Shown piece after piece: positions 8,436 to 50,202 of a DNA stretch of 64,000 nt (within the stretch, counting starts at the first letter, position 1; the number at the start of each line of letters is the position of its first letter). Location: NCBI GenBank assembly GCA_964524645.1, contig CAZGEC010000001.1, forward strand, positions 179,994-243,993, given 5' to 3'. The notes below the pieces were generated by a model. The model ran no database searches. It was not told the DNA's origin and saw only the letters and a list, made by a program, of their open reading frames with translations. The position numbers and the translations under genes are program-made. The DNA comes from an uncultured Fibrobacteraceae bacterium (GTDB lineage Bacteria > Krumholzibacteriota > Krumholzibacteriia > LZORAL124-64-63).

Positions 8436-8463
8436 GCTCGAACCTCCTGCCAGAACAGCCGCC

Positions 8464-10469: not shown

Positions 10470-10508
10470 GATGACTCCCGAGCACACCCTGCAGGGTGTG
10501 CGGATGCG

Positions 10509-14305: not shown

Positions 14306-14338
14306 CTCCCTCCGCGCGGCCTGCGCGGAGCGTTGCGG

Positions 14339-34415: not shown

Positions 34416-34646
34416 TCAGCTCAGGTCCCGGAACTGCTGCCACAGGCGGCTGAACCGGCTGGCGTAGACCATCTCGAACAGCTCCAGGCGATCGGGCAGA
34501 TTTTCCGCGCACCAGCGGCGCAGGTTGCGGATCTCGATCTCGATGTCGATGTCCGGGTAGTCGGTGGCGACGATCAAGAAGGCGATGCGATCGGCCCGCC
34601 GCTGCAGCACGCGGGCCGGTTCTTCGACGAGGTCGAGTCGGGTCAT
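34416..34646 (-). CDS. Small acidic hypothetical protein (76 aa)
   Basis: MTRLDLVEEPARVLQRRADRIAFLIVATDYPDIDIEIEIRNLRRWCAENLPDRLELFEMVYASRFSRLWQQFRDLS, with GAGAGGA RBS 8 nt upstream. The remainder of the 487-aa track ORF is antisense to the neighbouring gene. Confidence 0.4.
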   Translation of the reverse strand: MTRLDLVEEPARVLQRRADRIAFLIVATDYPDIDIEIEIRNLRRWCAENLPDRLELFEMVYASRFSRLWQQFRDLS

Positions 34647-34852
34647 CTCGTTGTCCTCTCGCGTGGCCGCTGGCGGCCGGCATGCAGCTCCGCGGCCATG
34701 TCGTTCCACAGGACAGCATAACCCGTGCGCGGGGCCGGGGCCAGGGATATGCAGGAGGATGGCGAGAATCGGCAGCGCCGGTCGGTTCCCCACCGGCCGG
34801 CGCCACATCGTCCTGAAGATTGCTCCCGGCGGGAGTGGGCCTGCGCCGGCGC

Positions 34853-35851
34853 TCAGTCCGCGTGCTCGATGACGATCCGCACGGTCCCGTCCAGCTCCGC
34901 CCGCAGGTCGGGTTTCTGCTCGGCCGCCGTCTCCACCTGCTCGCGCGGCAGGATCATGTTGGTGGCCAGGCAGCTGGCCACCGCGTCGGCGCGCTGCTCG
35001 GCCAGCGGCAGCGACTCGGCCACCACGACCACGCGGACCGGCGAATAGGGATGGCACCGGATCTCGTCGGTGGCGCGGATCACCCAGTCGCGACCGCGGT
35101 CGGTCAGCTTGGCTTGTTCCCGATTGAACAGCTCGCCGCCGGCCAGCTCCAGGCGGCGGTCGCCGTCCTGGCGGTAGTCCAGCGCCGGCAGGCGGAAGCT
35201 GACGCCGGCGTAGTTGTAGCTGTTGGTCCCCTTGTCGGTGATGCCGAAGACGTAGCTGTAGGGATAACCGACCTGGAGCATATCGCCGCGGTCGCCCCGG
35301 CCGTCCCAGGCCAGGCTGGCGGGCGGGGTTCCGCCGCCGGTGAAGGTCTTGAAGGGCGCGCCGCGGTAATCGGTGATGGTCAGCTGCCAGGACTGGACCT
35401 GGTGGCCCTCGGGATCCTGGGGGAAGAAGGTGACCATCGGGGCACGCGACATCGACCGCAGCCAGCAGTGCGGCGGCTGGTCGCTGGCCAGCTTCTCCAG
35501 GTTGTTCAGGTGGGGCTTCAGACCGCTCACCGGGCTGATGCCAAGGGCCTCCTCGTCCATCGCCGTGAAGAAGGAGTCCACCAGGGCGGCATCCAGATCG
35601 AAGCTGAAGGACCCCTTCTGGATCTGCTGCCGCACCTTGTTCTCGGCCTCGACGGTGATCTCGGGCAGGGCGGCTCCGCCCTCTCCCGCCTGGGTGAACT
35701 CCTGACCATCGGCCGGGCCGCCCGCGGCCGTCTGGTCCGCGGTCTGCGCCGCGGTGGAGCCGGCCAGCAGGACCAGCAGCGCCAGGATGTTCAGCAGGCC
35801 CGCCGCCCGCAGCCGGGCGTCCTCGGTGATTGCATGGCTCGAACTGCGCAT
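34853..35851 (-). CDS. Secreted protein with degenerate OmpA/MotB-like peptidoglycan-binding C-terminal domain (Pal-like position)
   Basis: Start M21 of the track ORF (signal peptide MRSSSHAITEDARLRAAGLLNILALLVLLAGSTAAQ). C-terminal ...FNREQAKLTDRGRDWV...RVVVVAESLPLAEQRADAVASCLATNMILP...RIVIEHAD resembles OmpA_C. Lies directly downstream of tonB. Confidence 0.5.
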   Translation of the reverse strand: MRSSSHAITEDARLRAAGLLNILALLVLLAGSTAAQTADQTAAGGPADGQEFTQAGEGGAALPEITVEAENKVRQQIQKGSFSFDLDAALVDSFFTAMDEEALGISPVSGLKPHLNNLEKLASDQPPHCWLRSMSRAPMVTFFPQDPEGHQVQSWQLTITDYRGAPFKTFTGGGTPPASLAWDGRGDRGDMLQVGYPYSYVFGITDKGTNSYNYAGVSFRLPALDYRQDGDRRLELAGGELFNREQAKLTDRGRDWVIRATDEIRCHPYSPVRVVVVAESLPLAEQRADAVASCLATNMILPREQVETAAEQKPDLRAELDGTVRIVIEHAD

Positions 35852-35879
35852 GGTCGTTCCTCGCTCCCCCGGGCCGCAC

Positions 35880-37133
35880 TCAATGCAGCCGGAAGACGAT
35901 GGTGATGACACCCCACTGCTCCACCGCCGCCTGTTCGGCGCGCAGAGGGGCGAAGCGGAACTGCTTGAGAGCCTCCATGGCGGAGCGGTTCAGGTCGCGG
36001 TGCACCGAGCTCTGCTCGAAGTACATGTTGTCCTTGACCCGGCCGTCGGCCAGCACGGTGAAGTGCACTGCCACGACCCCCTCCCAGCCATGCCGGCGGG
36101 CCTCGTCGGGGTACACCGGCGTCACGCTGGAGAGGATCTTGCGGCCCTGGATCTGACCGGAGATGGTCATGCTCACGCCCTGGCCGGAGGCCGGCACCTC
36201 GGCCACGGACTGCGGGGCGCTCTCCTGCTTCTGCTCCTGCTGGACGATGGTCCGGGTGTCGACGACCTCGGCCAGCCGGCCGCGCCGCCCCGCCAGGGCG
36301 CCGCCACCGCCCCCGCTGCCCGTCCCGTAGTCGAGGATCGTCTTGCGGGCGGAGCTCTCGCTGCCGCCGCCGCCGCTCGGGCCTCCCACGTCCACGACGC
36401 CGGAGCCGCCGGAGTCGTGCGTCGTGCGGGTCGCGGGCGCGAGGCCCGCCACCACGGCGGGCGCCGTTCCCTGAGCCGCGCGCAGGGCACCCCCGCCCAG
36501 GTTGGCCGGCACATCGGCCACGGTTCCCCGCGACCCGCCGCTCGGCGCGGCCACGGGCTTGTCGGTGATGATGATCTTGCCGCTGCGGCTCTGCAGGCTG
36601 GCGCTGGCCGGCCGGAAGGCATCGGCGGCCGGCGCACCGGCGGCCGGCGTCAGCCTGGCCGTCGCGTCCGCGACCTGCTGGGCGCGCAGCTCCCGCTGGT
36701 CCAGGACGGGCTGGACCGCGGCCTGGAAGTCCTTGGCTTCCAGCTTGCTGCTCGCCTCGAGCATCTGCGGCTGGGCCTTGGGCGCTATCTGCGGCGCCGC
36801 CACGTCCATCACGGCCGGCTTGGACTCCGGCCGCGGCGGCTCCGGCGATTTCGACTTCGGCTTGATGGCCGAATCGGTGCTGATCCCCCGCCCCGGTTCT
36901 TCCGCCAGCTGCGGCCGGAGGGGCATCTGCTTGAGCTTCACCTTGGCGGCGACGTCCTCGCCATAGGTGGCCTCGATGTACGAGATCTCGGTCAGCTCTC
37001 CCACCTTGTCCAGCAAACCCGTCTGACGGCCCACCTGGTAGAGGAGCAGCAGGAAGAGCAGCGCATGGAGAGCCGTGCTGGCCACCAGGCTGCCCCGCGT
37101 GGGGCGGCTGCGGTCCACGGCGGTCCTGATCAT
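35880..37133 (-). CDS. tonB: TonB-family energy transducer (second copy)
   Basis: N-terminal TM (LVASTALHALLFLLLLY), Pro/Ala/Gly-rich linker and a TonB_C domain (ILSSVTPVYPDEARRHGWEGVVAVHFTVLADGRVKD...AMEALKQFRFAPL). Start overlaps the exbD stop (ATGA). Confidence 0.75.
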   Translation of the reverse strand: MIRTAVDRSRPTRGSLVASTALHALLFLLLLYQVGRQTGLLDKVGELTEISYIEATYGEDVAAKVKLKQMPLRPQLAEEPGRGISTDSAIKPKSKSPEPPRPESKPAVMDVAAPQIAPKAQPQMLEASSKLEAKDFQAAVQPVLDQRELRAQQVADATARLTPAAGAPAADAFRPASASLQSRSGKIIITDKPVAAPSGGSRGTVADVPANLGGGALRAAQGTAPAVVAGLAPATRTTHDSGGSGVVDVGGPSGGGGSESSARKTILDYGTGSGGGGGALAGRRGRLAEVVDTRTIVQQEQKQESAPQSVAEVPASGQGVSMTISGQIQGRKILSSVTPVYPDEARRHGWEGVVAVHFTVLADGRVKDNMYFEQSSVHRDLNRSAMEALKQFRFAPLRAEQAAVEQWGVITIVFRLH

Positions 37134-37543
37134 TGCTCCCCCCCTTCGTCCTTCTGCCGGGTCGCCAGGGCGATGCGCGGCGCCTGGGCCGCTTCCACCT
37201 TGGCGATCAGCTGCTCGACGTCCCCGTAGATCAGGGCCTTGTCGGCCTTCACCACCGCCACGCCGTCCGGAGCCGCCTCGAACAGCTCCTTCAGGAAGGG
37301 CTGCAGCTCCTCGGGCTCCACCTGGAAGTCCCCCACGAAGATCTCGTGGTCCAGGGTGTAGGTGATCTCGATGTTGTCCGCGTCGTCCACCTCGCTGGCC
37401 CGTGCCTCCGGCAGATCGACGCCCTGCTCGTTCTCGCTCAGGAAGGGAGCGATCAGCATGAGGGTCAGCACGACCACCAGCGAGACGTTGATGATCGGTG
37501 ACACGTCGATCGTGTTCTCGTAGTTGAAGCCGTGCGGGATCAT
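37130..37543 (-). CDS. exbD: ExbD/TolR biopolymer transport protein (copy 2 of 2 in this cluster)
   Basis: Start M32 of the track ORF. MIPHGFNYENTIDVSPIINVSLVVVLTLMLIAPF. Confidence 0.8.
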   Translation of the reverse strand: MIPHGFNYENTIDVSPIINVSLVVVLTLMLIAPFLSENEQGVDLPEARASEVDDADNIEITYTLDHEIFVGDFQVEPEELQPFLKELFEAAPDGVAVVKADKALIYGDVEQLIAKVEAAQAPRIALATRQKDEGGEQ

Positions 37544-37974
37544 GGCCGCCCTCCCAGCTCGTTCAGGAGGGCCAGGGCCCCGGCGCCGCTCGCCTTGGCG
37601 ATGTCCAGGACCGTGACCACCTGGCCATAGAGGCACTGATCGACCGGCACGATGACGACCGTCTTGTCGTCACGGGCCGCCAGCCGAGCCCGCAGCTTCC
37701 CCTCCAGCTCGGCCAGGGTCACCGTCTCGCCCGCCAGGACGATCCGATCCGGCTCCACGCGGATGGTCGTGATCTCGTCCTTGGCCTTGACGGTGGGCGT
37801 GATCACCTGCTCCTCGGAGCTGGCCTCGGCGGAGTTCACCTGGATGCCGTTCCACATGATGGCCGGCATGGTGATGAGGAAGACGACGATGAGCGTCGTC
37901 GTCACGTCCGCCAGCGGCGTGACGTTGGCCCGGGTGATCGCGGCGGTGAAGCGTCCTTGCTTACTGATGGACAT
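37540..37974 (-). CDS. exbD: ExbD/TolR biopolymer transport protein (copy 1 of 2)
   Basis: MSISKQGRFTAAITRANVTPLADVTTTLIVVFLITMP. GGAGAGG RBS. Stop overlaps the next exbD start. Confidence 0.8.
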   Translation of the reverse strand: MSISKQGRFTAAITRANVTPLADVTTTLIVVFLITMPAIMWNGIQVNSAEASSEEQVITPTVKAKDEITTIRVEPDRIVLAGETVTLAELEGKLRARLAARDDKTVVIVPVDQCLYGQVVTVLDIAKASGAGALALLNELGGRP

Positions 37975-37995: not shown

Positions 37996-38721
37996 CTACT
38001 TGAGGATGTCGGCCAGGACCGGCTCCAGATCCATGTTGGTCTTGGCCGGCTTGCGCGACGCCGGAGCCTTGGCGGCGGTCTCCTGCGCCGGCGCGACCTT
38101 GCGGAGCAGGTTGGCGCGCAGGATGAAGAACTCCTCGCGCGCGTCCTCCATGTCCACCACGCGGCAGCGAATCTGCCGCACGAAGGTGTTGAAGAACACC
38201 GTGGCGATCACCGCGACGATGATGCCGGCGGCCGTGGTCATGAGGGCCTCGGAAACGCCCATGGCCACCACGGAGCTGCCCCCGGAACCGGTGCGGGCGA
38301 TATCCGCGAAGGCGCGGATGATCCCGACCACCGTGCCGAAGAGGCCGAGCAGGGGCGCGATGTTGCTCATGGTCCCCAGCAGGCTGAGGTGGCGCTCCAT
38401 CTCCACCTGCTCCACCTCGATGGCGGTGTTGATGCGCTGCTGCAGGTCCTCGCGGCTGCGGTGCATGTTGGTCACGGCCTGGGCCATGACCCGGGCGACC
38501 GCCCCCTTGCCTTTCCGGCAGTACTCCAGCGCGCCCTTGGCATTGTTCGCGTTCACCAGCGGGCCCAGCTCCTTCATGAAGCGCCCGACGTTCTGGCGGG
38601 TGGCGCGGAAGTAGAAGGTCCGCTCGAGGGCGAAGCCGACCGTGATGATGGAGCAGACGAGCAGCACCACCATGGTCGGCGAGGCCAGGAACAGATCGAT
38701 GAGCGACAGTTCGCCAAACAT
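37996..38721 (-). CDS. exbB: MotA/TolQ/ExbB proton-channel protein (second copy)
   Basis: 241 aa, 3 TM, conserved ...APLLGLFGTVVGIIRAF...EALMTTAAGIIVAVIATVFFN. AGGAGAGG RBS. Confidence 0.85.
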   Translation of the reverse strand: MFGELSLIDLFLASPTMVVLLVCSIITVGFALERTFYFRATRQNVGRFMKELGPLVNANNAKGALEYCRKGKGAVARVMAQAVTNMHRSREDLQQRINTAIEVEQVEMERHLSLLGTMSNIAPLLGLFGTVVGIIRAFADIARTGSGGSSVVAMGVSEALMTTAAGIIVAVIATVFFNTFVRQIRCRVVDMEDAREEFFILRANLLRKVAPAQETAAKAPASRKPAKTNMDLEPVLADILK

Positions 38722-38751: not shown

Positions 38752-41700
38752 CTAGCCGCCGGCGACCTCCATTTCCCTCAGGGCGGCGATCCGGCCTTGG
38801 GCCATCTCGGTCCATTCGGGTTTCCCGTGGGCATCGACGATCTTTTGGTAGGCGGTGATGGCCCCCGCCCAGTCCCCCCGCTTCTCCAGGATCTGGCCGA
38901 TCTGGGCCAGGCTGGCGATCCGGAAGGGATCGACGGCGGAACCGGCATCCGCCTTGCGGTAGCTGGCCAGGGCCTGCTCGAGGTCTCCGGCCTTCTCCCA
39001 GCACTCACCCTGGCGGAAGCGGATCTCCGCCGGGTTGGTCCCGTCCTGGGCCAGCGCCTTCTCGTAGGCGTCGACCGCATGGGGATAATCCCCGAGCTCC
39101 TCCTGATAAAGCGCACCGACCTGCTGCCAGAGGCCCTTGGCGTTCTCGTGGTTCGGGTACTGGGCCAGGAAGCGCTCGTAGCCGCCGACCGCGGCCGTCC
39201 AGTCCTCCAGCTCCTGGTAGCAGATGGCGGCGTTGTAGGCCGCCAGCGCCGCGTACTCCCCTTCCGGGAAGAGGTCCATCATCGCCTCGTAGGCGGCGGC
39301 GGACTCGGTGAAGCGCTCCAGCTTGAAGAGCACCGTGGCGGCGCGGAAGTGCGCCAGCTCCGCCAGGTCGTTCTCGGGATGGGTGGTCGTGAAGTTGCGG
39401 TACCCGGCCAGAGCCGGCTCCAGCTCCTCCTGCCGGTAGTAGCTCTCCGCCAGGTAGAACAGGGCGCCGGGACCGCTCTCGCTGTCCGGGTAGTCCAGGG
39501 TCACCTTCTCGAAGGCCTTGGCGGCCGTCGTGTAGTCGCCGGCCGCAAAGGCCTCCTGGCCCTTGTTCCAGTAGACGTCCGCGGCCAGGGCGCTGTCGGG
39601 ATGGCGATCCAGGTACTGCGTCATGTCCTTGCCGCTGCGGTAGTAGCAGGACTGGATCCCCAGCTCGGCGTCCTCGACGCGCTCGTCGTCCGGATAGGTC
39701 TCGGCGAAGGAGGAGAAGGCCGCGATCGCCGCCTCGTCCTCGCCCAGGTTGTATGCGCAGCTGGCGATGCCGAAGGCGGCATCGGCAACGTGCGCGCCCT
39801 GCGGGTAGCTGCTCTGCAAGCGCCGGTAGCTGGTCCGGGCCTCGGCGAAGCGCGCCAGTCCGAACTGGGTGTCGGCGATGCGATAGAGCGCTTCCGCGGC
39901 CTCGGCCGACTGGGGAAAGCGGGCCAGCAGGTCGGACCAGGTCTGCAAGGCCTGCTCGTAGTACTGGAGGCGGTAGTAGCATGCGCCGAGGTTCTGGAGC
40001 GCCGCCGGGGCCTCGGGGCTGTTCGGGTGCTTCTCCAGAAAGCCCGTGAACTGCTGCAGGGCCTCCTGGTAGTTGTGCTGGTTGAAGTGGATGCTGCCGA
40101 CCGCCAGAGCGTTGTTGCCCTCCTCGCTGTCCGCGTTGCCGAGCGCGAGCAGGAACTTCTGCTGCTCCGCCAGGGCCAGCTCGTAATCTCCGCACCGGCT
40201 GAGGCTGGCCACCAGCCCCTGCAAGGCGGGCGCGGCCACGTTGCTGCGCGGGTAGCCCGTCAGCACCAGCCGGTACATGTCACCGGCCTGCTGGTACAGG
40301 CCCTGGGCGTAGTAGGCCTCGCCGAGATAGTAGTAGGTCCGGGCCCGCCAGTAGCTCGGCGTGGGCAGCAGGCGGCTGGCGATGTAGTTGTAGTTGGTGA
40401 TCACGCGATCGAGCTGACCCTGTTCCGTGTAGGCCAGCGTCGAGAGGAAGAGAGCGCGCTCGGCGACGTCGGTGTTGACGTTCTTGTCCAGCACGTTCTG
40501 ATAGGCCATGACGGCCTCGTTGTACTCGCCGAGCTTGTAGTGGCTGAAGCCCTTCAGCACGTGCACGCGGGCGGCCAGGGGATCGCCGGGGAATCGCTTC
40601 AGGAACTCCTGGGCCATGAGGACGGCCTGGCCGTAGTTGCCCTCGGAGACGTAGGCATAGCAGATCTTGTGCAGGGCAGCGCTGGCCACGTGACTCTCGC
40701 CGAACCCGTGCACGACCTCGGTGTACGCGAAGATGGCCTCGGCGGTGCGCTCCAGCTGCATGTAGCAATCGCCGATCAGGTACTGGGCGTAGGCGCAGAC
40801 CATGTCGCCGGCGAAGCTCTTGCAGATCTCCTCCAGCTGACGGATGCTCTCGTCGAAACGCCCCTCGCTGTAGGTCACGCACGCCATCTTGTAGCGCGCG
40901 TTGGGCACGAACGGGCTCTCCGGGAAGTCGTCGATGAAGGAGCGGTAGCTGCGCACGGCCACGGCGTTCTGACCGCTGCGATAGAAGGCCTCGGCGATGC
41001 TGAAGGCGACGTCGTCCGCCAGGGGGCTGTCGGGATACTGCCGCAGCACCTGCTTGTAGCGCTGGATGGCGAGGATGTACTTGCCCGTGTCCTCGTAGCA
41101 GCGTCCCAGGTAGTAGAGCCCGCGGTCGCTCGGCACCTCCTCGAAGTAGGCCGTTGCGTCCTCGTAGCGCTGCTCCTGGTAGGCGAACAGGCCGAGGGCG
41201 AACTTGACCTGGGGCAGTTCCTTGTAGCCGGGGCGCGACTCCAGCAGCTCGCGATAGGCCGCGCGCAGCTTCAACCAGTTGCCCTGCACGATGTAGGTCA
41301 GGCCGCTCTCGTAGAGCGCCTCGGCCAGCAGGAAGGTGTCGTCGTACTTGTCCACCAGCCTGTCGTAGGAAGCGATCGCTGCGTCGAAATCACCCAGGTT
41401 GAAGTGGCACTCGCCCCGGCGCAGGAGCACGCTGGCCGCGAGGTAGTCGTCCCGCCCCTTGTACTTTTCCACGCGGTCGTACTCCTGCAGAGCCGCCTTG
41501 TAGTCGCCCACGGCGAAGTAGCACTCGCCCAGCATGTACTGAGCCCGGGCCGCGCGGTTGCTCTTGTGATAGGTCTGCACGAAGAGACGGTACTGCTGCA
41601 TGGCGGCCGATTTGTCCACGCCGGCGGCGTAGGCCGCACCGGCCGCTTGCCACAGAGCGTCCTCGGTGGGCACCTCGCTATCCTTGGCGAGGACCGGGCC

Positions 41701-41775
41701 GGTCCAGGTCAGGCTCAAGCCCAGCAGCAAGAGCAGGACTGCGGCGCCGCGGCGTCCGCTGGCTGCGGATCTCAT
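38752..41775 (-). CDS. Large TPR-repeat protein (about 20+ TPR units), secreted
   Basis: 1007 aa with a signal peptide (AAVLLLLLGLSLTWTGPVLA), then tandem 34-aa TPR units (A..Y.LG.CYF..G.Y..A...Y). 4-nt overlap with the upstream PorV-like gene. Confidence 0.8.
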   Translation of the reverse strand: MRSAASGRRGAAVLLLLLGLSLTWTGPVLAKDSEVPTEDALWQAAGAAYAAGVDKSAAMQQYRLFVQTYHKSNRAARAQYMLGECYFAVGDYKAALQEYDRVEKYKGRDDYLAASVLLRRGECHFNLGDFDAAIASYDRLVDKYDDTFLLAEALYESGLTYIVQGNWLKLRAAYRELLESRPGYKELPQVKFALGLFAYQEQRYEDATAYFEEVPSDRGLYYLGRCYEDTGKYILAIQRYKQVLRQYPDSPLADDVAFSIAEAFYRSGQNAVAVRSYRSFIDDFPESPFVPNARYKMACVTYSEGRFDESIRQLEEICKSFAGDMVCAYAQYLIGDCYMQLERTAEAIFAYTEVVHGFGESHVASAALHKICYAYVSEGNYGQAVLMAQEFLKRFPGDPLAARVHVLKGFSHYKLGEYNEAVMAYQNVLDKNVNTDVAERALFLSTLAYTEQGQLDRVITNYNYIASRLLPTPSYWRARTYYYLGEAYYAQGLYQQAGDMYRLVLTGYPRSNVAAPALQGLVASLSRCGDYELALAEQQKFLLALGNADSEEGNNALAVGSIHFNQHNYQEALQQFTGFLEKHPNSPEAPAALQNLGACYYRLQYYEQALQTWSDLLARFPQSAEAAEALYRIADTQFGLARFAEARTSYRRLQSSYPQGAHVADAAFGIASCAYNLGEDEAAIAAFSSFAETYPDDERVEDAELGIQSCYYRSGKDMTQYLDRHPDSALAADVYWNKGQEAFAAGDYTTAAKAFEKVTLDYPDSESGPGALFYLAESYYRQEELEPALAGYRNFTTTHPENDLAELAHFRAATVLFKLERFTESAAAYEAMMDLFPEGEYAALAAYNAAICYQELEDWTAAVGGYERFLAQYPNHENAKGLWQQVGALYQEELGDYPHAVDAYEKALAQDGTNPAEIRFRQGECWEKAGDLEQALASYRKADAGSAVDPFRIASLAQIGQILEKRGDWAGAITAYQKIVDAHGKPEWTEMAQGRIAALREMEVAGG

Positions 41776-43100
41776 CGCTGATCCCCCTCCGTAGAGTTGT
41801 CCGAACCGCCGTTGATCTCCACCCGGATGGGGACCCGGGTGCGGTCACGGAAGCCCAGCACCTCGACGCTGGTCTCGTAGTCCCATTCCTGGCCGAGGTC
41901 GTCCAGGATGATCACCTGGGCCGCATAGTCGCCGTCCGCCACCAGGCGGCCCTGGTCGTCGTCGCCGTTCCAGGCGATGCCCTCGGGCGGCTCGCCATTC
42001 CCCTGCAGGCGCCGCACGACGTTGCCGTCGCCGTCGCGGATCAGAAGCTGCCAGGATTCCACGTGGCCGCGGACGGCCGTGTCGATGGTGAAGTTCACCG
42101 AGCGCTCCGCGCCCGAGGGGCTGAACAGCTCGCGGTCGCGGTGCATCTTGACGCCGTACGGGACACCGAAACGGAAGGTGGCGCTCACGACGTTGGACGC
42201 TCCCAGCTCGTGGTCGATGAAGGCGTAGTCCAGCTGCCAGTTCTCCCAGCGCACGCCGAGGCCGGCGCTGAACTGCTCCTTGCCGGTGTCGTAGCCGCCG
42301 CGCACGCCGATGGCGCGCGTGGGCCAGACCTCGAGACCGGTGTGGAAGCTGGCGTCCATGTACTCGGTCTTGACCAGATCGGCCAGGGCCAGCAATCGGT
42401 TGTTGAAGAAGCGCAGGGCCAATCCTCCGCGCACGCTGCGCACCAGCTTCTCCGCGTCCTCCTCCAGCGTGATCTCCGGCGCCACCAGGTTCTGCACTGC
42501 CGCTCCCAGGCTGAGGTTGCGGTGCGGGCGCAGGTAGACGCCAACGTCGACGCCTGTGCCGCTGCCCTTGCTGCCGCCCACGTTCTGCGAGACCGACTTG
42601 AGGTTCAGTCCCCAGGCGAAACGGCCGCTGCCACGCGCGAAGCTGAGACAGAAGGCCCCCTCCCGCTCGCTGAAGGACTCGTCCAGATCCTCGAAGATCG
42701 TGGCGCGCTCGAACTCGCCGCTCGAGACCAGCGAGCCGCTCAGGGCGAAGGTCCCCCAGTGCTCGGTGGGCAACCCCAGCGCGAAGAAGGTGTAGCGAGT
42801 GTCCTCGAAGAGGATGGCCTCCATGCCCGTCAGCTCCATGGTGCGCAACTGGGACAGGCCCGCCGGATTCCAGTAAGCCGTGGCCACGTCGTCGGCCAGC
42901 CCCGCCACGGCGTTGCCCAGGCCCAGGCTGCGCGCGCTGGAGCCGTAGCGCAGGTAGCTGCCGGGGATGCCGGCGTCGTCGGCGGCCCTAACCGGTCCGG
43001 CTGCGAGCAAGAAGGCCAGGCCGCAGACCGGCAGGAGCGGGATCGCGCGGGGACGGCGGCCGCCGCGCGGGATGCGAGGTGCTGTGCGTCGTTGCCTCAT
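41772..43100 (-). CDS. PorV/PorQ- (or PorP/SprF-) like outer-membrane beta-barrel with extra C-terminal FlgD-Ig-like domain
   Basis: 442 aa with a signal peptide. The N-terminal motif ARSLGLGNAVAGLADDVATAYWNPAGLSQL matches the OMP at 10509..11774 and the T9SS shuttle-protein family signature. The C-terminal ~100 aa (GIAWNGDDDQGRLVADGDYAAQVIILD) resembles a FlgD-Ig fold. It lies immediately downstream of the giant CTD-bearing protein. Confidence 0.65.
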   Translation of the reverse strand: MRQRRTAPRIPRGGRRPRAIPLLPVCGLAFLLAAGPVRAADDAGIPGSYLRYGSSARSLGLGNAVAGLADDVATAYWNPAGLSQLRTMELTGMEAILFEDTRYTFFALGLPTEHWGTFALSGSLVSSGEFERATIFEDLDESFSEREGAFCLSFARGSGRFAWGLNLKSVSQNVGGSKGSGTGVDVGVYLRPHRNLSLGAAVQNLVAPEITLEEDAEKLVRSVRGGLALRFFNNRLLALADLVKTEYMDASFHTGLEVWPTRAIGVRGGYDTGKEQFSAGLGVRWENWQLDYAFIDHELGASNVVSATFRFGVPYGVKMHRDRELFSPSGAERSVNFTIDTAVRGHVESWQLLIRDGDGNVVRRLQGNGEPPEGIAWNGDDDQGRLVADGDYAAQVIILDDLGQEWDYETSVEVLGFRDRTRVPIRVEINGGSDNSTEGDQR

Positions 43101-43109: not shown

Positions 43110-46100
43110 CTACTTGATCACGGCGATCTTGCGCCGCAGATCGATGCCGTTGCCATGGATCCGACAGATGTAGCCGCCGTTGGCCACGACCCTGTCATTG
43201 CCGTTGCGACCGTCCCAGACGAACTGCGTCAGCTCCCCGGCCTGCGCGTACTCCTGGTGGCTGTGGACCACGTCGCCGTACAGGTCGTAGATCGTCACCG
43301 TCACGGTGCCGCTCCGGGGAGCCCGGAAAAGGATCAGCGTGTTCTCGTGGCCGGCCCGGAACGGGTTGGGCCGGTTGGTGATGTCCCGATCCGTGTCCAG
43401 GTCCCTGCCGGTGTGCAGGGTCACGGTCCGCACCGATTCGGCAACGCCCGAGACCTCCTCCGCGTAGAAGCGCAGGCGGTGATCACCCGGCGTGTCCAGA
43501 CCGAGCTGCGCGAGGCTGAAGTCTCCGGTGTAGACCTGGCCGGGATACGGCGGATCCACCTGGTCCACGTCGAAGAAGATGGCCTGGATGCCCTGGGATT
43601 CCTCCGTCGTGGCGGTCAGACTGATCCGGGTGCTGGAGGTGACGTAGTAGCCATCGCCGAAGGGCGGGGCCTCCGGATCGAAGCGGACGACCGTCCGGGG
43701 CGGTCCGATGACATCGACGAGGAGCTGCACCGAGCTGACCAGGCTCGCCGCGGCCTCCAGCAGGATGTCCGTGCTGCCGTACTGGGTCACGGTGAGGCTC
43801 ACCATGGCCAGGCCGTCGCTGGCGGTCTGGGTGCTGTACGTGGTCTGGTGGGCGGCGCCCAGCACCCCGTCCCCCGCCAGGACCCTGAACTGGACGGGCT
43901 CCCCGATGATGGCGTTGCCCGAGGCATCCGTGGCCCGTGCCAGCGCGGTCACGATCTGACCGGGGCGCACGGGCGTGGCGAGACGCTGGCCCGGCAGGCG
44001 CTCCGCCCACAGCTCGAGACTGCTGACCGCGGCGGGCAGGACCGTGATCACGTCGCTGAAAGCCAGCTCACCGCTGTCGTCCGAGACCCGCAGGTAGATG
44101 GTCTCGGCGCGATCGTAGCTCTGGTGGTCGAAGGTCTTGACGCCCAGCGCGGTCGTCCCGACGGTATCGGCCAGCACTCCCATGGGCCGCAGGCTGAGAT
44201 CCGGTCGCGGCGAGTTGCCGCTGAGGGCCCGCAGCAGGAAGGTGCGGTCGTCGTTGGTCACCAGCTGTCCGGTCACGATGTCGACGCGCCGGACGCTCAT
44301 GGACCAGGACTCTCCCGCCACCACCGTGTCCGGCACGTCCACGGCGTAGCGCACGCCCACCGGCACCACGGTCAGGACCTCGCTGAAGGCCTCCCGGCCG
44401 CGGGCGTCGCTCACCCTGATGACGATCTGCTCGCTGGTGGCGTAGTACTGGCCGCCGATGATGGCCTCTCCCGCCACCAGAGTGGCGCCGCCGATGCCCA
44501 GCGCCGAGCTTGCCGGGGTGCGGTCGGGGTGCAGGGCCGTCATGGTGAAGGCGTTGCCGGCGTTGATCCGCTCCTCCGTCTCCGGATTCACCAGGCGGAT
44601 GGTGAGGGTGAAGGTGGCCGGCGGTCCCGCCACGACCTGGGGTGGTGTCGGCAGGATGATGCGGTACTCGGCCTCATTCACCGGGATGTCCACGCGTCCG
44701 GTGTTGACCGTGGGATGCTGGGGATCGGTGGCGAAGAGGGCCACCAGACCGGGATCGCCCAGCACGATCTCGATATCCCGGCTGCCGTTGATGAACGGCG
44801 CGTCCTGATCCACGGGATCGACGATGTCGAGGGCCCCGCCCGAGCTGGACAGGTGGATCGTTCCGCTGTTCAGCGAGTGCATCAGGTTGAAGTACTGATC
44901 CACGGCCCGCACGGTGACCGTGAACGGAACCTCGGCCTGCTGGGTCAGCACCTCGCCGATCTTGCCGGTGCCGGTGACGGCGCCGGGCTGGGGCGTCTCG
45001 CCCGGAGCCACGATCTGGATGCGCTTGAACCCGTCGGCCAACATGCGGCAGGTATTGCTGATGCCGACCACACCGACGGTATCGCTGACCTCGATGAAGA
45101 TGTCCTCGGCCTTGGTGTAGGCCTGAGCGATGTTGCGCAGTCCGCTCACCAGCAGCCCCTGACGGACCTCGAGCTGTCCGGTCCCGACCAGACCGGTGGT
45201 GGCGCTCATGACCTCGATGGCAAAGAGGCGATCCTGGGTGGTGACCCGTTCGCCGGTGTTGCTGTCGATCAGCTCGATCCGCAGGGGGAAGGTCGCCGGC
45301 GGACCGACCGTCGCACTGTCGGGGATGGTCACAGCGTAGTAGAGGCCACCTGTGTCCATGTGGATCACGCTGCTGATGGCCTCGCGTCCGAAGTCGTCGG
45401 TGACCCGGATGACGATGTCCTCGACGGTGCTGTAGCTCTCATGGTTGATCACGCTCACGCCGCCCACCAGCTGCGACTGGGTGATGCCCAAGGTGCCGTT
45501 AGCGGCGCCCTGGTTGGGCAGGAGCGGCGTCAGGGTGAAGCGGTTCATCGCCGTGGGCACGACGTTCCCTGTGACCGGATCGATGAGCTTCACCGTCACC
45601 TGGAAGCCGGGTACGGGACCGGTCGAGGCGGTCGCCGGCACCGTGATCTCGTAGATGAACGGCGGATCCACGGGAATGGGCACGGACTGGGAAGGCCGCG
45701 AGATGTCCGCCTCATCGAAGGCCGAGACGGTCACGATGCCCTCGTCCGTCAGGAAGCCGTTGAAGGTCCGCCGCCCGTTCACGAAAGGCACGTAGTTTTC
45801 CGCCGGGTTCCCCGGCAGCGAGAACGAGTTGTCGCTGGCGACCAGCCGCACCACGCCGGAGTTGGTGGTGTCGGCCAGGTTCCAGTACTGGTCCACGGCT
45901 CGCACCGTGATGGGGAACGGTTCGCCGGAGCGCTGCGAGACGGCCGTGCCGGACTTGCCGGTCGTGGCGTAGATCGGGATGCCGGCCTCGACAACCTCGC
46001 CCGGCGCCACGATCTGCAGCTTCTTGTAGCCGTCCGAGACCAGGCCGAAGATGGGACTGGAACCCGCAAGACCGGTGGAGTCCGTCACCGTGACGTAGAC

Positions 46101-49100
46101 GTTGCCGGCCCGGGTGTAGCTCTGCTGGAAGTTGATGGTGCCGCGGTCTAGACGCTGCGACGTGACACCGACCGCCCCGAGCGCCGTACCGGTGACGACG
46201 TCGCGCACGTCCACCGTGATCCGACGGTCGTCGTCGATGACGGTCTGGGTGTCCACGTCCCGCAGGCGCACGTTCACGGGGAAGGTGGCGGGCGGACCGA
46301 CCCGCGGTGTCGGGGTCGTCGTCACCGCAACCACATACTCCATGCCGTTGCTCTGCATCTGGATGGTCGAGCTGTAGCTGAGACGTCCTGAGGCGTCGCC
46401 GATCCGCAGGACAATATCCTCGACAGTGTCGTAGGCCTGGTTGTTGATGGTCACCGAGCCCGCATTGAGCTGCGCCTGGGTAACGAACGGCGCGCTGCTG
46501 GCCGGTTCGAGGTTGCTGAGCAGGGCCGAGATCGTAACCCAGTTGTTGGCGGCTGGCAGCGGCGCACCATTGCTGTCCACCAGAGCAATGGTCATCGAGA
46601 AGGTGCTGGGCGGCCCCACGAAGGCCGTGGGCGGGGTGGTGATCTGGTACATCGCCCCCTGTTCCACCTCGACCGTCACCGCCTGACCCACAATATCAGT
46701 GTGGTCCAGGGCCGAGGCCGCCAGGGTGACGAAGCCGGTGCTGGTCAGAAACAGCGGGAGGATGATCTCGCCGTTGACCAGCGATTGGTCGTTGTTGAGC
46801 GGATTCGTCGGCGTGATGGAGCCGTCGTCGCTGGCCAGGTGGATGTGCTCGCTGCTGTTGTCCACCAGGTTCCAGAATTGGTCCACCGAACGCACATGCA
46901 CGTCGAACTCGAGGCTGGCGGTCTGGGTCAGCGGCGCCCCTACCTTGCCGTCCGCCTCGGGTCCGCCGGGCAGCGGCGTCTCACCCGGCAGCAGGATCAT
47001 CAGGCGATCGACGGATCCCGGGGTCACCAGGATGGTGCTGGTATCCGTCTTGGCAGGCGCGATCAGGTCTCTGACGGACAGCTGCTGCGTCTGCGCCGCC
47101 TTGAAGTAGAGATCGAAGGTGCCCGTCCCGTTCGGATCCAGCTGCTGATCGTTGGCCGAGATCATCTGGAAGTAACTGCTGCTCCCGAAGTGAACCGTGG
47201 GCTGAGCCGCGATGGGGTTCCATTCGCTGTCGGTGGCGATGACCGTCGCCACCACGGGGTTTCCAGCCACCACCGGCAACGGCGTCCCCACTTTCCCGGG
47301 CGCGATGCCCGGTGTGTGGGTCTCGCCCGGCAGCAGAAGGACCAGGTCTTCGTAGGTCCCTGCGAAGACCGTAAATGCATTGCTGCTGTCCGTCTTGGCG
47401 AACAGGTCCTCCCGCACGAACAGGCGCACGTTCTGACCCGCCCTGGTGATCCGGATCGAACCGCGCCAGACGCCGTGGTAGGTGCCGGTTCCGAAGCCGT
47501 CGCCCAGGCTGACCCGGACGGGCGTGAGCACGTTGGTGCCGTGGTTGACGTACAGCGAGACGCTGTCGGCGTAGTCCGCGATGTGGTTGTTGAAGATGTC
47601 GCGCGCCACGATGGTCACGTTCGGCAGGGAGGAGCCGGCCTGGTGGTCGGGGATCGGCGCGAGCACGTCGCCCGGGGTCGGGTTCGTGCGGTTGTTGATG
47701 CCGATGTCGAAGTGGTCGATGGCGCCGGCCTTCAGGGGAATCGTCGTGTAGGCGAACACGGCACTGCCGTTGTCGTCGACGCGGATCGTCTGCTGGTTGG
47801 GATCGGCCAGGGTGATCAGGGTCACCGAGAAATCGGTGGTGTTGTCGGCCAGCTGCTGCGGATTGGCCGGCAGGACGGCGGCTGCGTCGCTGCTGCTGAA
47901 GTCGACGCTCAGGGGCAGCCGCGGGTCCACGTCGGTGATGGGATTCCAGTAGGAGTCCGTGGCATACACCCGCACCTGGAACGGTACGCCGGCGTCCTGG
48001 GTGCTGGGATCGCCGATCTTGCCGTCGTCCTCGATGCTGTCGAAGATGCCAGGCTCCAGCTGCTCGCCCGGCGCCGCCACCACCATGCGCGCGAAGGGGG
48101 CGGGCGAAACGTACACCGCGCTCGAGTTGTTGGGGTTCACGCCGCTGGCGTCGGCCGTCAGGGTCTGGTTCAAGTAGGTGCGGAAGATCACCCGCACGTC
48201 CACGGGATTGTTGAGGCTGATCAGGTTGGTGGGGTAGTCCGGCAGCTCGAAGTAGCCGGTGCCGCAGCTGATGGTGACGTTGCGCTGCCCCGAGACGATG
48301 TTGCCGTAGCGGTCCACGGGACGGACGGTCACCGGGTCGACGATCTGGCCGGCCACGACGCTGTTGGGCACCCCCATGTTGCCGCTGAAGTTCGGATCGT
48401 TGAGCCCCGGGACCCAGGTCTCGCCGGGGAAGGTCAGGAGGATGCGGTTGAGGGGGCCCGAGTTGACCTGGAAGTGGCCGGAAACGCCCACGACGTCGGC
48501 GTTGCTGTCCACGATGACCCGGGCGCTGAAGGCGCGCTTGGTCACCTGCACGAGGGCATCCAGCTGGCCGTTGACGAAGGTGGCGTTGTTGGTGATGAGG
48601 TAATCCTCGGACTCGTCCGACGTGCCCAGCCGGGCCCGCAGGGTCACCTGGCCGTTGTAGGGGAAGGGGTTGTTGTTGCTGTCCTGCGCGCGCACGCGGA
48701 GCTGGAAGGGAATGGTGGTCACCTGGACGTCGAGGGTGTCCCAGACGGAGTAGTCGAAGACGAAGTGATCGAGACCTTCCGGGTTGACGATGACGTTGCT
48801 CTCGTTGCTGGAGCTGATGGGCCCGGAGGCCGAGACCGTGACCCGGCGCAGGCCGGACTGGATGAGCGTGACGGCCTCGTCCAGCTCGGCGTTGCTGGCC
48901 ATGGCGCCGCCCGCCGGCAGCGAGACGCCCGGGCTGGGATCGTCGCTGCTCCAGCTCAGGGTCGGATAGGGCCCGGATTCCACCGGGTTCCAGTGCTGGT
49001 CGGTGGCGTACACGTCCACGCCGTTGAAGCTGTTGCCGGAGATCTGGGGCTGGGGCACGCCGGTCTTACCGGGGCTGACGCCGGGGTTCAGGCTCTCGCC

Positions 49101-49871
49101 CGGCAGCAGCAGCACCACGGTGGCCAGCGGACCGGGCCGCAGGGGCGAGACGACCACGGAGCCGGTCGCCGGTCCAGCCTGGCCGGGATAGGTAATGGTG
49201 TTCCTGGCCGTCAGGGTGTTCTCGCGCGTCACCGGATTCGTGCCCCAGAAGATCACGGGCAGAGTGGCCTGGCCCATGGCGAAGGAGGTGCCGGGCACGG
49301 TCACGGTGGGTCCGCCGGAGAAATCACCGACGAGGGCGTCGAGGATCACGTCGTCGCCGAAGTTGGCCACGGTCTGGCTCTGGTAGTCCGTGGCCACCAG
49401 CGTGACGTTCACCGCCTGGTCCACGAACTTGTCGCCGGCCGGAACGGTCAACAGGAAATGATCCACGGGATTGTAGCAGTCGATGAGGACCTCGGCATGC
49501 GGCACCGAGGCGTCGTCGGCGTCGCGGACCCGCAACCGCACCGGCTGTCCCGCGGCCAGGAACGTGATGCCGTCGAACTGCCGCTCGCCGTTGTGCAGGT
49601 AGTCGTGCGGCGGCAGATTCGCCGGCACGTCGGGCGAGTATAGCTCGGCATTGATGAAGTCCGCCGTCAGGTCCGTCGTGCCATCCGCATTGACCGCGCG
49701 CACCCTCGCGCTGAAGGCGACCTGAACCGTGACCGCCGGCCGCCCGGCCACGATGTGCGGGTTGACCACCGTGATTTCCAGATGGTCGAAGGCCAGCGCG
49801 GTCGCCGGCAGGCAGCCGATCAGCGCGAGAAAACAGGCGATTCTGAAGATGAGATTCAAATGTCGCAGCAT
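43110..49871 (-). CDS. Giant (about 2250 aa) cell-surface multi-repeat protein with C-terminal FlgD-Ig/T9SS-type sorting domain (adhesin-like)
   Basis: ORF 43110..49985. Start chosen at MLRHLNLIFRIACFLALIGCLPATALA. There are at least 7 copies of a ~100-aa 'LLPGE..PG...GK.G.P..Q.AG.PF.V.V.A.D..WN' module and at least 6 copies of a second Ig-like ~100-aa module. The terminal 87 aa (RPNPFRAGHENTLILF...FVWDGRNGNDRVVANGGYICRIHGNGIDLRRKIAVIK) form the CTD. Confidence 0.8.
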   Translation of the reverse strand: MLRHLNLIFRIACFLALIGCLPATALAFDHLEITVVNPHIVAGRPAVTVQVAFSARVRAVNADGTTDLTADFINAELYSPDVPANLPPHDYLHNGERQFDGITFLAAGQPVRLRVRDADDASVPHAEVLIDCYNPVDHFLLTVPAGDKFVDQAVNVTLVATDYQSQTVANFGDDVILDALVGDFSGGPTVTVPGTSFAMGQATLPVIFWGTNPVTRENTLTARNTITYPGQAGPATGSVVVSPLRPGPLATVVLLLPGESLNPGVSPGKTGVPQPQISGNSFNGVDVYATDQHWNPVESGPYPTLSWSSDDPSPGVSLPAGGAMASNAELDEAVTLIQSGLRRVTVSASGPISSSNESNVIVNPEGLDHFVFDYSVWDTLDVQVTTIPFQLRVRAQDSNNNPFPYNGQVTLRARLGTSDESEDYLITNNATFVNGQLDALVQVTKRAFSARVIVDSNADVVGVSGHFQVNSGPLNRILLTFPGETWVPGLNDPNFSGNMGVPNSVVAGQIVDPVTVRPVDRYGNIVSGQRNVTISCGTGYFELPDYPTNLISLNNPVDVRVIFRTYLNQTLTADASGVNPNNSSAVYVSPAPFARMVVAAPGEQLEPGIFDSIEDDGKIGDPSTQDAGVPFQVRVYATDSYWNPITDVDPRLPLSVDFSSSDAAAVLPANPQQLADNTTDFSVTLITLADPNQQTIRVDDNGSAVFAYTTIPLKAGAIDHFDIGINNRTNPTPGDVLAPIPDHQAGSSLPNVTIVARDIFNNHIADYADSVSLYVNHGTNVLTPVRVSLGDGFGTGTYHGVWRGSIRITRAGQNVRLFVREDLFAKTDSSNAFTVFAGTYEDLVLLLPGETHTPGIAPGKVGTPLPVVAGNPVVATVIATDSEWNPIAAQPTVHFGSSSYFQMISANDQQLDPNGTGTFDLYFKAAQTQQLSVRDLIAPAKTDTSTILVTPGSVDRLMILLPGETPLPGGPEADGKVGAPLTQTASLEFDVHVRSVDQFWNLVDNSSEHIHLASDDGSITPTNPLNNDQSLVNGEIILPLFLTSTGFVTLAASALDHTDIVGQAVTVEVEQGAMYQITTPPTAFVGPPSTFSMTIALVDSNGAPLPAANNWVTISALLSNLEPASSAPFVTQAQLNAGSVTINNQAYDTVEDIVLRIGDASGRLSYSSTIQMQSNGMEYVVAVTTTPTPRVGPPATFPVNVRLRDVDTQTVIDDDRRITVDVRDVVTGTALGAVGVTSQRLDRGTINFQQSYTRAGNVYVTVTDSTGLAGSSPIFGLVSDGYKKLQIVAPGEVVEAGIPIYATTGKSGTAVSQRSGEPFPITVRAVDQYWNLADTTNSGVVRLVASDNSFSLPGNPAENYVPFVNGRRTFNGFLTDEGIVTVSAFDEADISRPSQSVPIPVDPPFIYEITVPATASTGPVPGFQVTVKLIDPVTGNVVPTAMNRFTLTPLLPNQGAANGTLGITQSQLVGGVSVINHESYSTVEDIVIRVTDDFGREAISSVIHMDTGGLYYAVTIPDSATVGPPATFPLRIELIDSNTGERVTTQDRLFAIEVMSATTGLVGTGQLEVRQGLLVSGLRNIAQAYTKAEDIFIEVSDTVGVVGISNTCRMLADGFKRIQIVAPGETPQPGAVTGTGKIGEVLTQQAEVPFTVTVRAVDQYFNLMHSLNSGTIHLSSSGGALDIVDPVDQDAPFINGSRDIEIVLGDPGLVALFATDPQHPTVNTGRVDIPVNEAEYRIILPTPPQVVAGPPATFTLTIRLVNPETEERINAGNAFTMTALHPDRTPASSALGIGGATLVAGEAIIGGQYYATSEQIVIRVSDARGREAFSEVLTVVPVGVRYAVDVPDTVVAGESWSMSVRRVDIVTGQLVTNDDRTFLLRALSGNSPRPDLSLRPMGVLADTVGTTALGVKTFDHQSYDRAETIYLRVSDDSGELAFSDVITVLPAAVSSLELWAERLPGQRLATPVRPGQIVTALARATDASGNAIIGEPVQFRVLAGDGVLGAAHQTTYSTQTASDGLAMVSLTVTQYGSTDILLEAAASLVSSVQLLVDVIGPPRTVVRFDPEAPPFGDGYYVTSSTRISLTATTEESQGIQAIFFDVDQVDPPYPGQVYTGDFSLAQLGLDTPGDHRLRFYAEEVSGVAESVRTVTLHTGRDLDTDRDITNRPNPFRAGHENTLILFRAPRSGTVTVTIYDLYGDVVHSHQEYAQAGELTQFVWDGRNGNDRVVANGGYICRIHGNGIDLRRKIAVIK
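44015..49118 (-). repeat. Intragenic tandem-domain repeat region of the giant surface protein (coordinates approximate)
   Basis: Protein-level periodicity of ~100-110 aa across residues ~290-1990: two alternating module types, diverged at DNA level. Confidence 0.5.
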
Positions 49872-50202
49872 GGGTACCCGCGCCTCGTCGTGGTGATTTG
49901 CACCCTTCTCCGGGGCGGCTTCGCAATATGCGACGTCGGCTGGCTCGCCCGGAGGACTTTCCGTGGTTCGGAAGGCGGGCCGCAAGGCGCATGCCAGGGG
50001 GTGGTGCGGTCGGTGATTTCCAGTGAGGGGGCGGAATACCCGGTCGTGGGGCAGCGAGATGCGAGCGCCTCAGGTATCCTGCCACGCTCGTTCCCGGCCA
50101 CCGGATGAGCAGGGCGAAGACCGGCGGCCACCGGAGGCGGGCAGCCAGCCATCCCGTTTTCGTGATCGATTATGACAAGAACATTCAATATTTAGAACTT
50201 GG

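Follow-up and report, generated by a model that had tools for sequence, protein, structure and literature searches.

In a 64,000-nucleotide stretch of DNA from an uncultured Fibrobacteraceae bacterium, placed by GTDB in the Krumholzibacteriota (contig CAZGEC010000001.1, positions 179,994 to 243,993 of the forward strand; G+C ~68%; the whole stretch is called the window below), we find a 442-aa outer-membrane protein (41772..43100, minus strand). It consists of a signal peptide, a FadL-type hatch, a beta-barrel of the PorV/PorQ family, an immunoglobulin-like (Ig) domain of the FlgD type and a conserved tail. Its assignment to the FadL/PorV/PorQ superfamily of barrels is solid, and it is best read as a specialised member of that superfamily rather than as a general type IX secretion system (T9SS) shuttle. 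The gene is the second in a cluster of eight, and we give about even odds (a probability near 0.5) to the view that the protein is the outer-membrane part of an eight-gene module, anchoring a rod-like protein that bears a C-terminal domain (CTD) of the T9SS kind and being docked in the periplasm to a module of tetratricopeptide repeat (TPR), OmpA-like and TonB-like proteins. The novelty lies in the conserved module of eight genes and not in the fusion of barrel and Ig domain.

Barrel, Ig domain and tail of the 442-aa protein

An earlier note on this DNA, made from the sequence alone, had described two PorV/PorQ-like barrels in the window, the 442-aa protein and a 421-aa protein (10509..11774, minus strand). 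Both open reading frames (ORFs) are present and contain the peptides that it cited, but the proposed likeness holds for the 442-aa protein and not for the 421-aa protein, which is treated further below. With 119.6 bits over residues 49-314, the 442-aa protein clears the cutoff of 90 for the broad NCBIfam family of PorV and PorQ (NF033709), and it stays well below the cutoffs of the equivalogs PorV (NF033710, 28.8 against 250), PorQ (NF033711, 61.9 against 220) and PorV2 (NF052325, 59.5 against 325), PorQ being the best match at the equivalog level. Behind the predicted signal peptide (residues 1-39) and the hatch, the barrel spans residues 89-311 (42168..42836), as delimited by DSSP on an AlphaFold2 (AF2) model and by fold matches, and its last strand (...SATFRF) resembles an internal beta-signal. 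The model, which drew on an alignment of 47 homologues and has a predicted local distance difference test score (pLDDT) of 77.9, has as its top Foldseek matches FadL (2r89_A, E 1.1e-8), TodX (3brz) and PorV of Flavobacterium johnsoniae (8gl6_F, E 3e-8; 6h3i_F), with BamG (9n2d_B) lower in the list. A profile of the family finds PorV with E 1.5e-6, the match lying in the N-terminal motif and in the last strands; the profile was needed, as a PDB search with the single sequence returned a marginal PorV match only (E 0.37). The modelled barrel is compact, with no inter-strand turn longer than 5 residues, and hatch and barrel together take up ~275 aa, compared with the 402 aa of F. johnsoniae PorV.

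The C-terminal segment cited by the earlier note (GIAWNGDDDQGRLVADGDY...) is also present, and contains a FlgD-Ig-like beta-sandwich at residues 317-414 (41859..42152, minus strand). Pfam FlgD_ig (PF13860) is over its gathering cutoff (30.8 against 27 bits, residues 334-396), solved FlgD structures are found by the family profile (E 0.004-0.018), and structure prediction, which the note had proposed as a check, gives a confident sandwich of seven strands in the full-length and the domain-only AF2 models alike (pLDDT 88-97, core >90). When the domain alone is used in a fold search, the matches are Ig/Fn3-like, and PorZ, PorU, FlgD, C5a-peptidase Fn3 and macroglobulin domains score alike; the fold search cannot tell a FlgD-type from a CTD-type domain. 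With the Ig domain of the FlgD hook cap the appended domain shares the core ...I.D..G..V..L....G.....W.G.D..G..V..G.Y..., although the flagellar context of FlgD is absent around the 442-aa gene.

The suggestion that this segment resembles the CTDs of T9SS cargo proteins is right as far as the superfamily goes, since the domain shares the Ig sandwich of FlgD_ig type and the core of the type A CTDs, but it lacks their defining ends and does not stand at the C-terminus. It starts with LFSPSG and not with PNPF, has no terminal K/R and ends near residue 414 of 442, with the conserved tail beyond it, and TIGR04183 gives no match to the 442-aa protein at E <= 1. Alignment with the CTDs of the 2291-aa rod protein of the cluster and of a neighbouring 886-aa cytochrome is restricted to the FlgD-Ig core (45-46 columns, 49-92% probability). 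It is most closely related to the Ig domain found in the 352-aa protein of the same operon (hhalign 96-97%, E 4e-9 / 7e-11, 90 columns). On these results, the Ig-like sandwich appended to the barrel belongs to the FlgD_ig superfamily and is not a sorting CTD of the cargo type.

The same evidence bears on the reading in which the protein is a T9SS shuttle of the PorV/PorQ kind with a cargo-like CTD of its own, either auto-inhibitory or self-targeting, which would occupy the CTD site or route the barrel through the T9SS. The family score, the best equivalog-level match to PorQ, the superfamily that the domain shares with cargo CTDs, the presence of PorZ and PorU among the Foldseek matches and a window rich in CTD-bearing proteins are all in keeping with it. 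We nevertheless hold it to be very improbable: the PorV, PorQ and PorV2 scores are far under their cutoffs, the TIGR04183 match, PNPF start and terminal K/R are missing, ~45 further residues including the conserved tail follow the domain, and its closest relatives are joined to OmpA-like modules. Moreover, a domain placed after the barrel would be periplasmic, whereas PorV grips CTDs by extracellular loops (PMC10994853).

That the Ig domain and the tail should lie on the periplasmic side follows from their position after the last strand of an even-stranded barrel of the FadL type. We also counted for this placement that homologous Ig domains are joined to OmpA-like modules (in the homologue P0131 and in the 352-aa protein) and that the same barrel is found with C-terminal TPR repeats as one protein (P0177, P0213). 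Among characterised proteins, the C-terminal tail of BamG contacts the periplasmic BamD (PMC12611786), and FadL-like barrels of Treponema pallidum carry C-terminal TPR extensions that are presumptively periplasmic (PMC8407342).

The tail LGFRDRTRVPIRVEING (residues 415-431; 41808..41858, minus strand; LGFxDRTRxPIRVEISG) is predicted to be disordered, with pLDDT <50 in the AF2 models. Its mean conservation is 0.84, and G416, F417, R420, T421 and P424 are invariant in the family alignment. Hhalign carries the tail DRTRVPIRVEINGG onto YRQDGDRRLELAGG, a stretch of the 352-aa protein that forms the first strand of its OmpA-like domain, and through this alignment the extension of the barrel has the look of an Ig-OmpA module cut short. 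A role of the tail as a TonB box was considered and rejected, since it aligns to that first strand and the TonB-box-like motif of the cluster sits on the 352-aa protein.

A barrel with a CTD-like domain of its own had been thought unusual in the earlier note, and here the family tells otherwise: the top 120 homologues are all 416-467 aa long, 116 of them carry PF13860, and the name of the top homologues at NCBI is 'PorV/PorQ family protein [Candidatus Krumholzibacteria]'. When 1.84 billion cluster representatives were searched with the profile, ~38 further 50%-identity clusters of 370-490 aa matched from the barrel through the Ig domain, and source names at NCBI/JGI include 'UPF0164 family protein', 'FlgD Ig-like domain/UPF0164' and 'PorV/PorQ family protein [Candidatus Firestonebacteria]'. 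In this widespread family, which databases already label, the fusion is thus the normal state. In the literature we found no paper describing it, and none that joins Krumholzibacteriota with type IX secretion or PorV with FlgD/Ig-like domains.

Two further groups of proteins were returned by the profile search. Barrels with other C-terminal extensions occur, of which P0190, P0227, P0253, P0258 and P0266 are 500-660 aa long with uncharacterised extensions. Tandem proteins with 8-33 copies of the same FlgD_ig subtype are numerous and are among the best matches of the family profile (P0131, P0136, P0139, P0143, P0149 and others); P0131 (1048 aa), the sole tandem protein scanned, has an OmpA domain at its end and matches CHU_C and Big_13 as well.

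An eight-gene cluster around the barrel

The cluster is encoded on the minus strand in the order Ig-repeat rod (2291 aa), barrel-Ig (442 aa), TPR (1007 aa), ExbB (241 aa), ExbD (144 aa), ExbD (168 aa), TonB-like (417 aa) and Ig-OmpA-like (352 aa), and as a conserved module it appears to be undescribed. We compared it with 54 related loci by tblastn of the cluster proteins. Essentially every locus that is long enough retains the order, including ~35 loci of Krumholzibacteriota and one locus each from a Zixibacteriota and a Gemmatimonadota metagenome-assembled genome (both with 37-54% identity). More distant metagenome loci retain it as well. The rod is conserved over its full length (64-69% among the Krumholzibacteriota, 37-38% for the loci of Zixibacteriota and Gemmatimonadota), and synteny of the TPR gene holds in every locus whose length allows it to be seen. 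Although the length of the first gene ranges from 584 to 3116 aa across loci, the upstream neighbour of the barrel is always CTD-bearing (type-A-like) in the loci compared, and in six distant loci it ends in N[YF]PNPF...WDG[RK]N..G..V..G.Y...R[RK][IL][AG]V[IV][KR]. In locus L055 (10001..14086) a single gene for a 1361-aa protein (P0177) takes the barrel and TPR position of the cluster, and this gene is a Rosetta-stone fusion of the two. Another natural barrel-TPR fusion, P0213, has 611 aa. In three Krumholzibacteriota loci (L005, L007 and L010, ~14400..18900) ~4.5 kb are inserted between the TPR gene and exbB.

Locus L056 has in addition a separate gene for a 309-aa PorV-type protein (19633..20562, minus strand; PF19572, weak), beside lptE and ~8 kb from the cluster. 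This suggests that a canonical PorV is retained beside the barrel-Ig paralogue in these lineages, and is consistent with barrel-Ig being a specialised paralogue.

The first gene of the cluster (43110..49985, minus strand; likely start M39, nt 49871) encodes the rod, which has Big_1 and FlgD_ig matches. We estimate from its length that it has ~20 Ig-like domains, which would far exceed the width of the periplasm. It ends in a type-A-like T9SS CTD (residues 2190-2291; 43113..43418) with the pattern PNPF...WDGRN...RRKIAVIK. This CTD is 33% identical over 86 aa to that of the 886-aa cytochrome, and both begin with PNPF and end with ...RK(I/L)xx(I/L)K at the very C-terminus. Next to the barrel gene on its other side lies the gene for the secreted 1007-aa TPR protein (38752..41775, minus strand; TPR_6, TPR_2, TPR_16 and YfiO matches). 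It is followed, on the same strand, by an ExbB/TolQ-type proton channel (37996..38721; PF01618, 104.5 bits), two ExbD/TolR proteins (37540..37974, PF02472, 66.3 bits; and 37130..37636, PF02472, 65.9 bits) and a TonB-like protein with a C-terminal TonB_C domain (35880..37133; PF03544, 58.7 bits; TIGR01352, 62.5 bits). The listed start of the second ExbD/TolR overlaps the previous gene, and the true start is probably further in.

The last gene (34853..35911, minus strand; likely start M21, nt 35851) encodes a secreted protein with a TonB-box-like N-terminus, a FlgD-Ig domain and an OmpA-like C-terminus, the latter matched by the family profile to the OmpA-like YiaD (2k1s, E 0.0028). This frame is a real gene, with 62-69% identity in 33 loci and a G+C content at third codon positions (GC3) of 0.91. 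A 487-aa ORF (34416..35879, minus strand) that competes for the place of last cluster gene was rejected as an off-frame artefact of high-GC DNA, despite ~46-54% tblastn identity. Just past the signal peptide, at about residues 80-92 of the listed ORF, the 352-aa protein has the conserved motif LPEITVEAENKV (LPEITVEAEN), with the counterparts LDDVTVTGEDKL (LDDVTVTGEDK) in the Firestonebacteria locus L057 and LKSLTIEAENRV (LKSLTIEAENR) in L060. It resembles a TonB box, a likeness that we use as a lead only, and could be a binding site for the adjacent TonB-like protein.

The mechanism that we infer for the barrel-Ig protein would combine these parts as follows. The rod would be exported and then retained on the outside of the cell by the dedicated barrel, which would hold its CTD, and the Ig domain and tail of the barrel would dock at the inner face of the membrane onto the TPR scaffold, the Ig-OmpA-like paralogue or both. 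Such docking could link the rod outside both to the wall and to a unit of ExbB, ExbD and TonB that is driven by the proton-motive force. The anchoring role is proposed by analogy with the barrels PorQ, PorV and PorP/SprF, which hold linked cargo (PorZ and PorU in the case of the first two).

Several observations weigh against this reading. The long extracellular loops by which PorV grips CTDs seem to be largely absent from the 442-aa barrel, which has short turns in the AF2 model; in the same model the strand number is 14 or 16 by the DSSP string alone, and residues 36-69 are of low confidence. Outside Krumholzibacteriota the tail is loosely conserved, with only a short [VI][PQ]I[ERS] element in distant homologues. 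The Firestonebacteria locus, ordered rod, barrel-Ig, ExbD, ExbD, TonB and a ~309-aa protein, has no TPR and ExbB genes at the cluster position. As for the rod, its TIGR04183 score is under the cutoff (18.2 against 23), T9SS export being assumed from CTD similarity, and its pairing with the barrel through the CTD would be a matter of gene order only. No T9SS core genes were found in the 64-kb window.

The motor genes and the OmpA-like domain also fit an outer-membrane tether of a Tol-Pal-like integrity or division system, in which the part of TolQRA would be taken by ExbB, ExbD and TonB, that of CpoB/YbgF by the TPR protein and that of a merged TolB box and Pal by the Ig-OmpA protein, with a periplasmic or wall-associated rod. 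TolQ, TolR, TolA and YbgF are among the top NCBIfam matches of the cluster genes, and all members including the rod are highly conserved. The TonB-box-like N-terminus of the 352-aa protein recalls the TolA-binding N-terminus of TolB. We think this alternative unlikely, in view of Tol equivalog scores that are all well below cutoff (TolQ 108.8 against 221, TolR 43.6-56.2 against 127.3, TolA 29.3 against 59.45); no TolB, nor a beta-propeller like that of TolB, was found among the window proteins, and the OmpA-like protein is without the lipobox of Pal. The rod, in turn, would with its estimated number of domains be far too long for the periplasm, and its CTD is of a type that it has in common with an obviously secreted multihaem cytochrome.

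A stronger form of the anchoring view makes the cluster a hitherto undescribed trans-envelope machine coupled to the proton-motive force, in which the TonB unit would pull, via the TonB-box-like strand, on the Ig-OmpA and TPR proteins, themselves docked to the Ig domain of the barrel, while the barrel holds the T9SS-exported rod, the whole acting as a powered filament or adhesin. This would cover Krumholzibacteriota, Zixibacteriota, Gemmatimonadota, Firestonebacteria and related uncultured lineages; we regard it as tentative, a possibility on the doubtful side.

The 886-aa protein used above for comparison is a multihaem c-type cytochrome encoded divergently from the cluster (50339..52999, plus strand), with MtrC/MtrF-like and cytochrome c7/c554 matches. 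It ends in a T9SS type A sorting domain that is over the cutoff (TIGR04183, 28.4 against 23; FlgD_ig, 44.4 bits), and it is predicted to be secreted or at the surface. A 962-aa FG-GAP repeat protein (16601..19489, minus strand) with a C-terminal FlgD_ig-like match (25.7 against the Pfam cutoff of 27) is a candidate for a third CTD cargo of the window.

The NPAGL hatch motif and the 421-aa barrel

The hatch motif SSARSLGLGNAVAGLADDVATAYWNPAGLSQLR of the 442-aa protein (residues 54-86; 42843..42941, minus strand) has S55, A56, R57, D70, D71, N78 and P79 invariant, and no part of the protein is more conserved across the family than this hatch region (residues 44-88; mean column conservation 0.85). 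In the family alignment N78-P79 is invariant and A80 is 96% conserved, ~39 residues past the predicted cut of the signal peptide. NPAGL falls on residues 78-82 in both the 442-aa and the 421-aa protein (motif at 11517..11615 in the latter). The residue-for-residue alignment reported earlier between the two is borne out for a 30-residue stretch (residues 54-83 in both), which aligns without gaps and with 12/30 identities (AR..G.G.......D....A..NPAGL..L), but the signature string as it was written is misspaced: the N is at position 23 of the stretch and not at 25, and 'A..D' is out of register between the barrels. What the two dependably share is AR, G.G, one D, one A and NPAGL..L. Residue shuffles predict 0.075 occurrences of NPAGL in the six-frame translation of the window; it is found 3 times, twice at the N78-L82 sites of the two barrels. 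BLASTP of the whole proteins gives a match in the motif region (E 0.045) and one other short match, with E 0.02-0.05; this similarity is local only, and we could rule out that the two barrels are close or recent paralogues.

The hatch region of the 442-aa protein aligns to the N-terminus of PorV (6h3i_F, ARAAGLGDQGVATSSDVFSQQWNPA), and also to BamG, to positions 22-57 of the Toluene_X profile and to the N-termini of the FilD/FadL profiles. FadL itself has the NPA motif in its hatch (N33-P34-A35), where it is required for the conformational change linked to transport (PMC8407342), and structures of FadL 'delta NPA', N33A and P34A mutants are among the titles of the Foldseek matches. Both PorV and BamG have been described as FadL homologues (PMC12578637). 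Since the signature aligns to PorV, BamG and Toluene_X and is found in FadL, it marks the whole superfamily: it is the FadL-superfamily hatch ('NPA') motif and not the PorV/PorQ tag for which it had been taken. Its presence in both barrels is best read as shared FadL-superfamily ancestry. For annotation this means that an NPAGL-type motif is not a T9SS marker, just as FlgD_ig matches are not automatically secretion CTDs.

The FadL fold, the highly conserved NPA hatch and the tight linkage to a TonB system are in accord with a third alternative, a FadL-type uptake channel whose hydrophobic or polymeric substrate would be passed by the Ig domain and tail to periplasmic partners, with import energised by ExbB-ExbD-TonB. 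In Fibrobacter succinogenes, FSU_2397/2398 (TPR) and FSU_2400-2403 are up on cellulose and the import of cellodextrin has been hypothesised (PMC6851124), though that cluster was compared by published gene order only. We find an uptake channel quite improbable. The barrel has no evident TonB box, the TonB-box-like motif being on the 352-aa protein, and Pfam Toluene_X (PF03349) stays below its gathering score (14.2 against 29.7 bits) with a match to the N-terminal motif region only. Nor would an uptake channel account for the giant CTD-bearing gene that obligatorily comes first or for the OmpA-like gene at the end.

The second carrier of the motif, the 421-aa protein, would be a BamG-like and not a PorV-like barrel, as judged by its profile and structure matches. 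It aligns to the BamG profile NF053685 nearly end to end (residues 37-421, profile positions 4-393/397) with 107.7 bits, below the equivalog cutoff of 250, whereas it reaches 11.5 bits with PorV_fam NF033709, on the motif alone. Solved subunits of the barrel assembly machinery (BAM) are matched by the same protein (9hiv_F, E 6.4e-7, residues 56-421; 9n2d_B, 'Bam G', E 0.0023). BamG is a FadL-family outer-membrane protein with 14 strands, essential in Bacteroidota (PMC12611786, PMC12578637) and reported to be conserved in most phyla of the Fibrobacteres-Chlorobi-Bacteroidetes (FCB) group (PMC12611786).

The 421-aa barrel also lies in a motor-linked cluster (9657..15529, minus strand), in the order TonB-like (396 aa; 14339..15529), ExbB (222 aa; 13637..14305), ExbD (169 aa; 13224..13733), a putative lipoprotein of 518 aa with a LAGGC lipobox (11771..13327; 4-nt overlap with the barrel gene), the BamG-like barrel and a TPR protein (276 aa; 9657..10487). 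With this set, both FadL-type barrels of the window adjoin ExbB/ExbD/TonB genes and a TPR gene. BamG2 and BamH2 of Bacteroides thetaiotaomicron are putatively encoded in one operon (PMC12578637); for the 518-aa lipoprotein as a BamH, no similarity was seen in Pfam, NCBIfam or PDB searches. Downstream of the BamG-like cluster and mnmA is a gene for a 1000-aa AsmA-like protein (5709..8711, minus strand), whose C-terminus matches the Leptospira-type GspN TIGR04411 (34 bits against a cutoff of 50).

Significance and comparison with known systems

Barrels of the FadL/PorV type are increasingly seen as adaptable platforms, serving as a lipid channel, as a carrier of T9SS cargo and as the BamG subunit of BAM. 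To these the barrel-Ig family adds a barrel with an Ig domain of its own, predicted to be periplasmic, and it is genetically tied to a CTD-bearing rod, a very large TPR protein, a paralogue of OmpA-like kind and a motor of the TonB type in several poorly known phyla. If the proposed coupling is true, it would join surface display of the T9SS type to an energy source like that of TonB or Tol, and would offer a candidate explanation of the way in which large structures are anchored or moved at the surface of uncultured bacteria related to the FCB group.

Similar to the attachment complex of the Porphyromonas gingivalis T9SS, in which the barrels of PorQ-PorZ and PorV-PorU anchor a CTD-bearing surface protein (PMC7463736), the 442-aa protein is a FadL-like barrel of the PorV/PorQ family with a CTD-bearing partner, a pairing that in our case comes from gene order only. 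It differs in being much smaller, with loops that look short in the model and an extra, presumably periplasmic Ig domain and tail, and in lying below the equivalog cutoffs; PorV wraps the cargo CTD inside SprA with long extracellular loops (PMC10994853). The attachment complex has no linkage to TPR, ExbBD and TonB genes such as the 442-aa barrel gene has. The PorP/SprF barrels share with barrel-Ig the position of the cargo gene directly beside that of a dedicated barrel, as their genes adjoin those of type B CTD cargo (SprF-SprB; PorP-PorE-PG1035) (PMC12618676), and P. gingivalis PorP binds both the CTD cargo and PorE, a peptidoglycan-binding periplasmic protein of TPR/OmpA type (PMC7463736). 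They are a different barrel family (TIGR03519 gives 17 bits on the 442-aa protein, against a cutoff of 90.55), the cargo CTD in our cluster is type-A-like, and the periplasmic link would here be the built-in Ig domain. If the powered machine holds, the SprB/SprF gliding adhesins and the myxobacterial Agl-Glt would be functionally comparable.

BamG compares with the 421-aa barrel in the full-length profile match, the structure-sequence matches and the N-terminal R...G...NPA region, apart from the score below the equivalog cutoff, and the 442-aa protein is not BamG-like. A parallel in build to the latter's appended domain is given by T. pallidum TP0548, TP0859 and TP0865 (UPF0164), each a FadL-like barrel with an NPA hatch and a presumptively periplasmic C-terminal extension (PMC8407342). 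The barrel-Ig family likewise has an appended interaction domain, some of its members are labelled UPF0164 and it includes barrel-TPR fusions; the Treponema extension is a small helical TPR bundle and not a FlgD-Ig sandwich, and the genomic context differs.

For the cluster as a whole, the gene content and order are similar to those of F. succinogenes FSU_2396-FSU_2403 (OmpA, TPR, TPR, ExbB, ExbD, ExbD, TonB), which is up on cellulose and whose OmpA and TPR proteins were detected as parts of a multiprotein complex of the outer membrane; in that cluster the paper reports neither a barrel-Ig gene nor a giant gene with a CTD (PMC6851124). On this likeness in published gene order, the eight-gene cluster might be a counterpart of the cellulose-adhesion complex of Fibrobacter.

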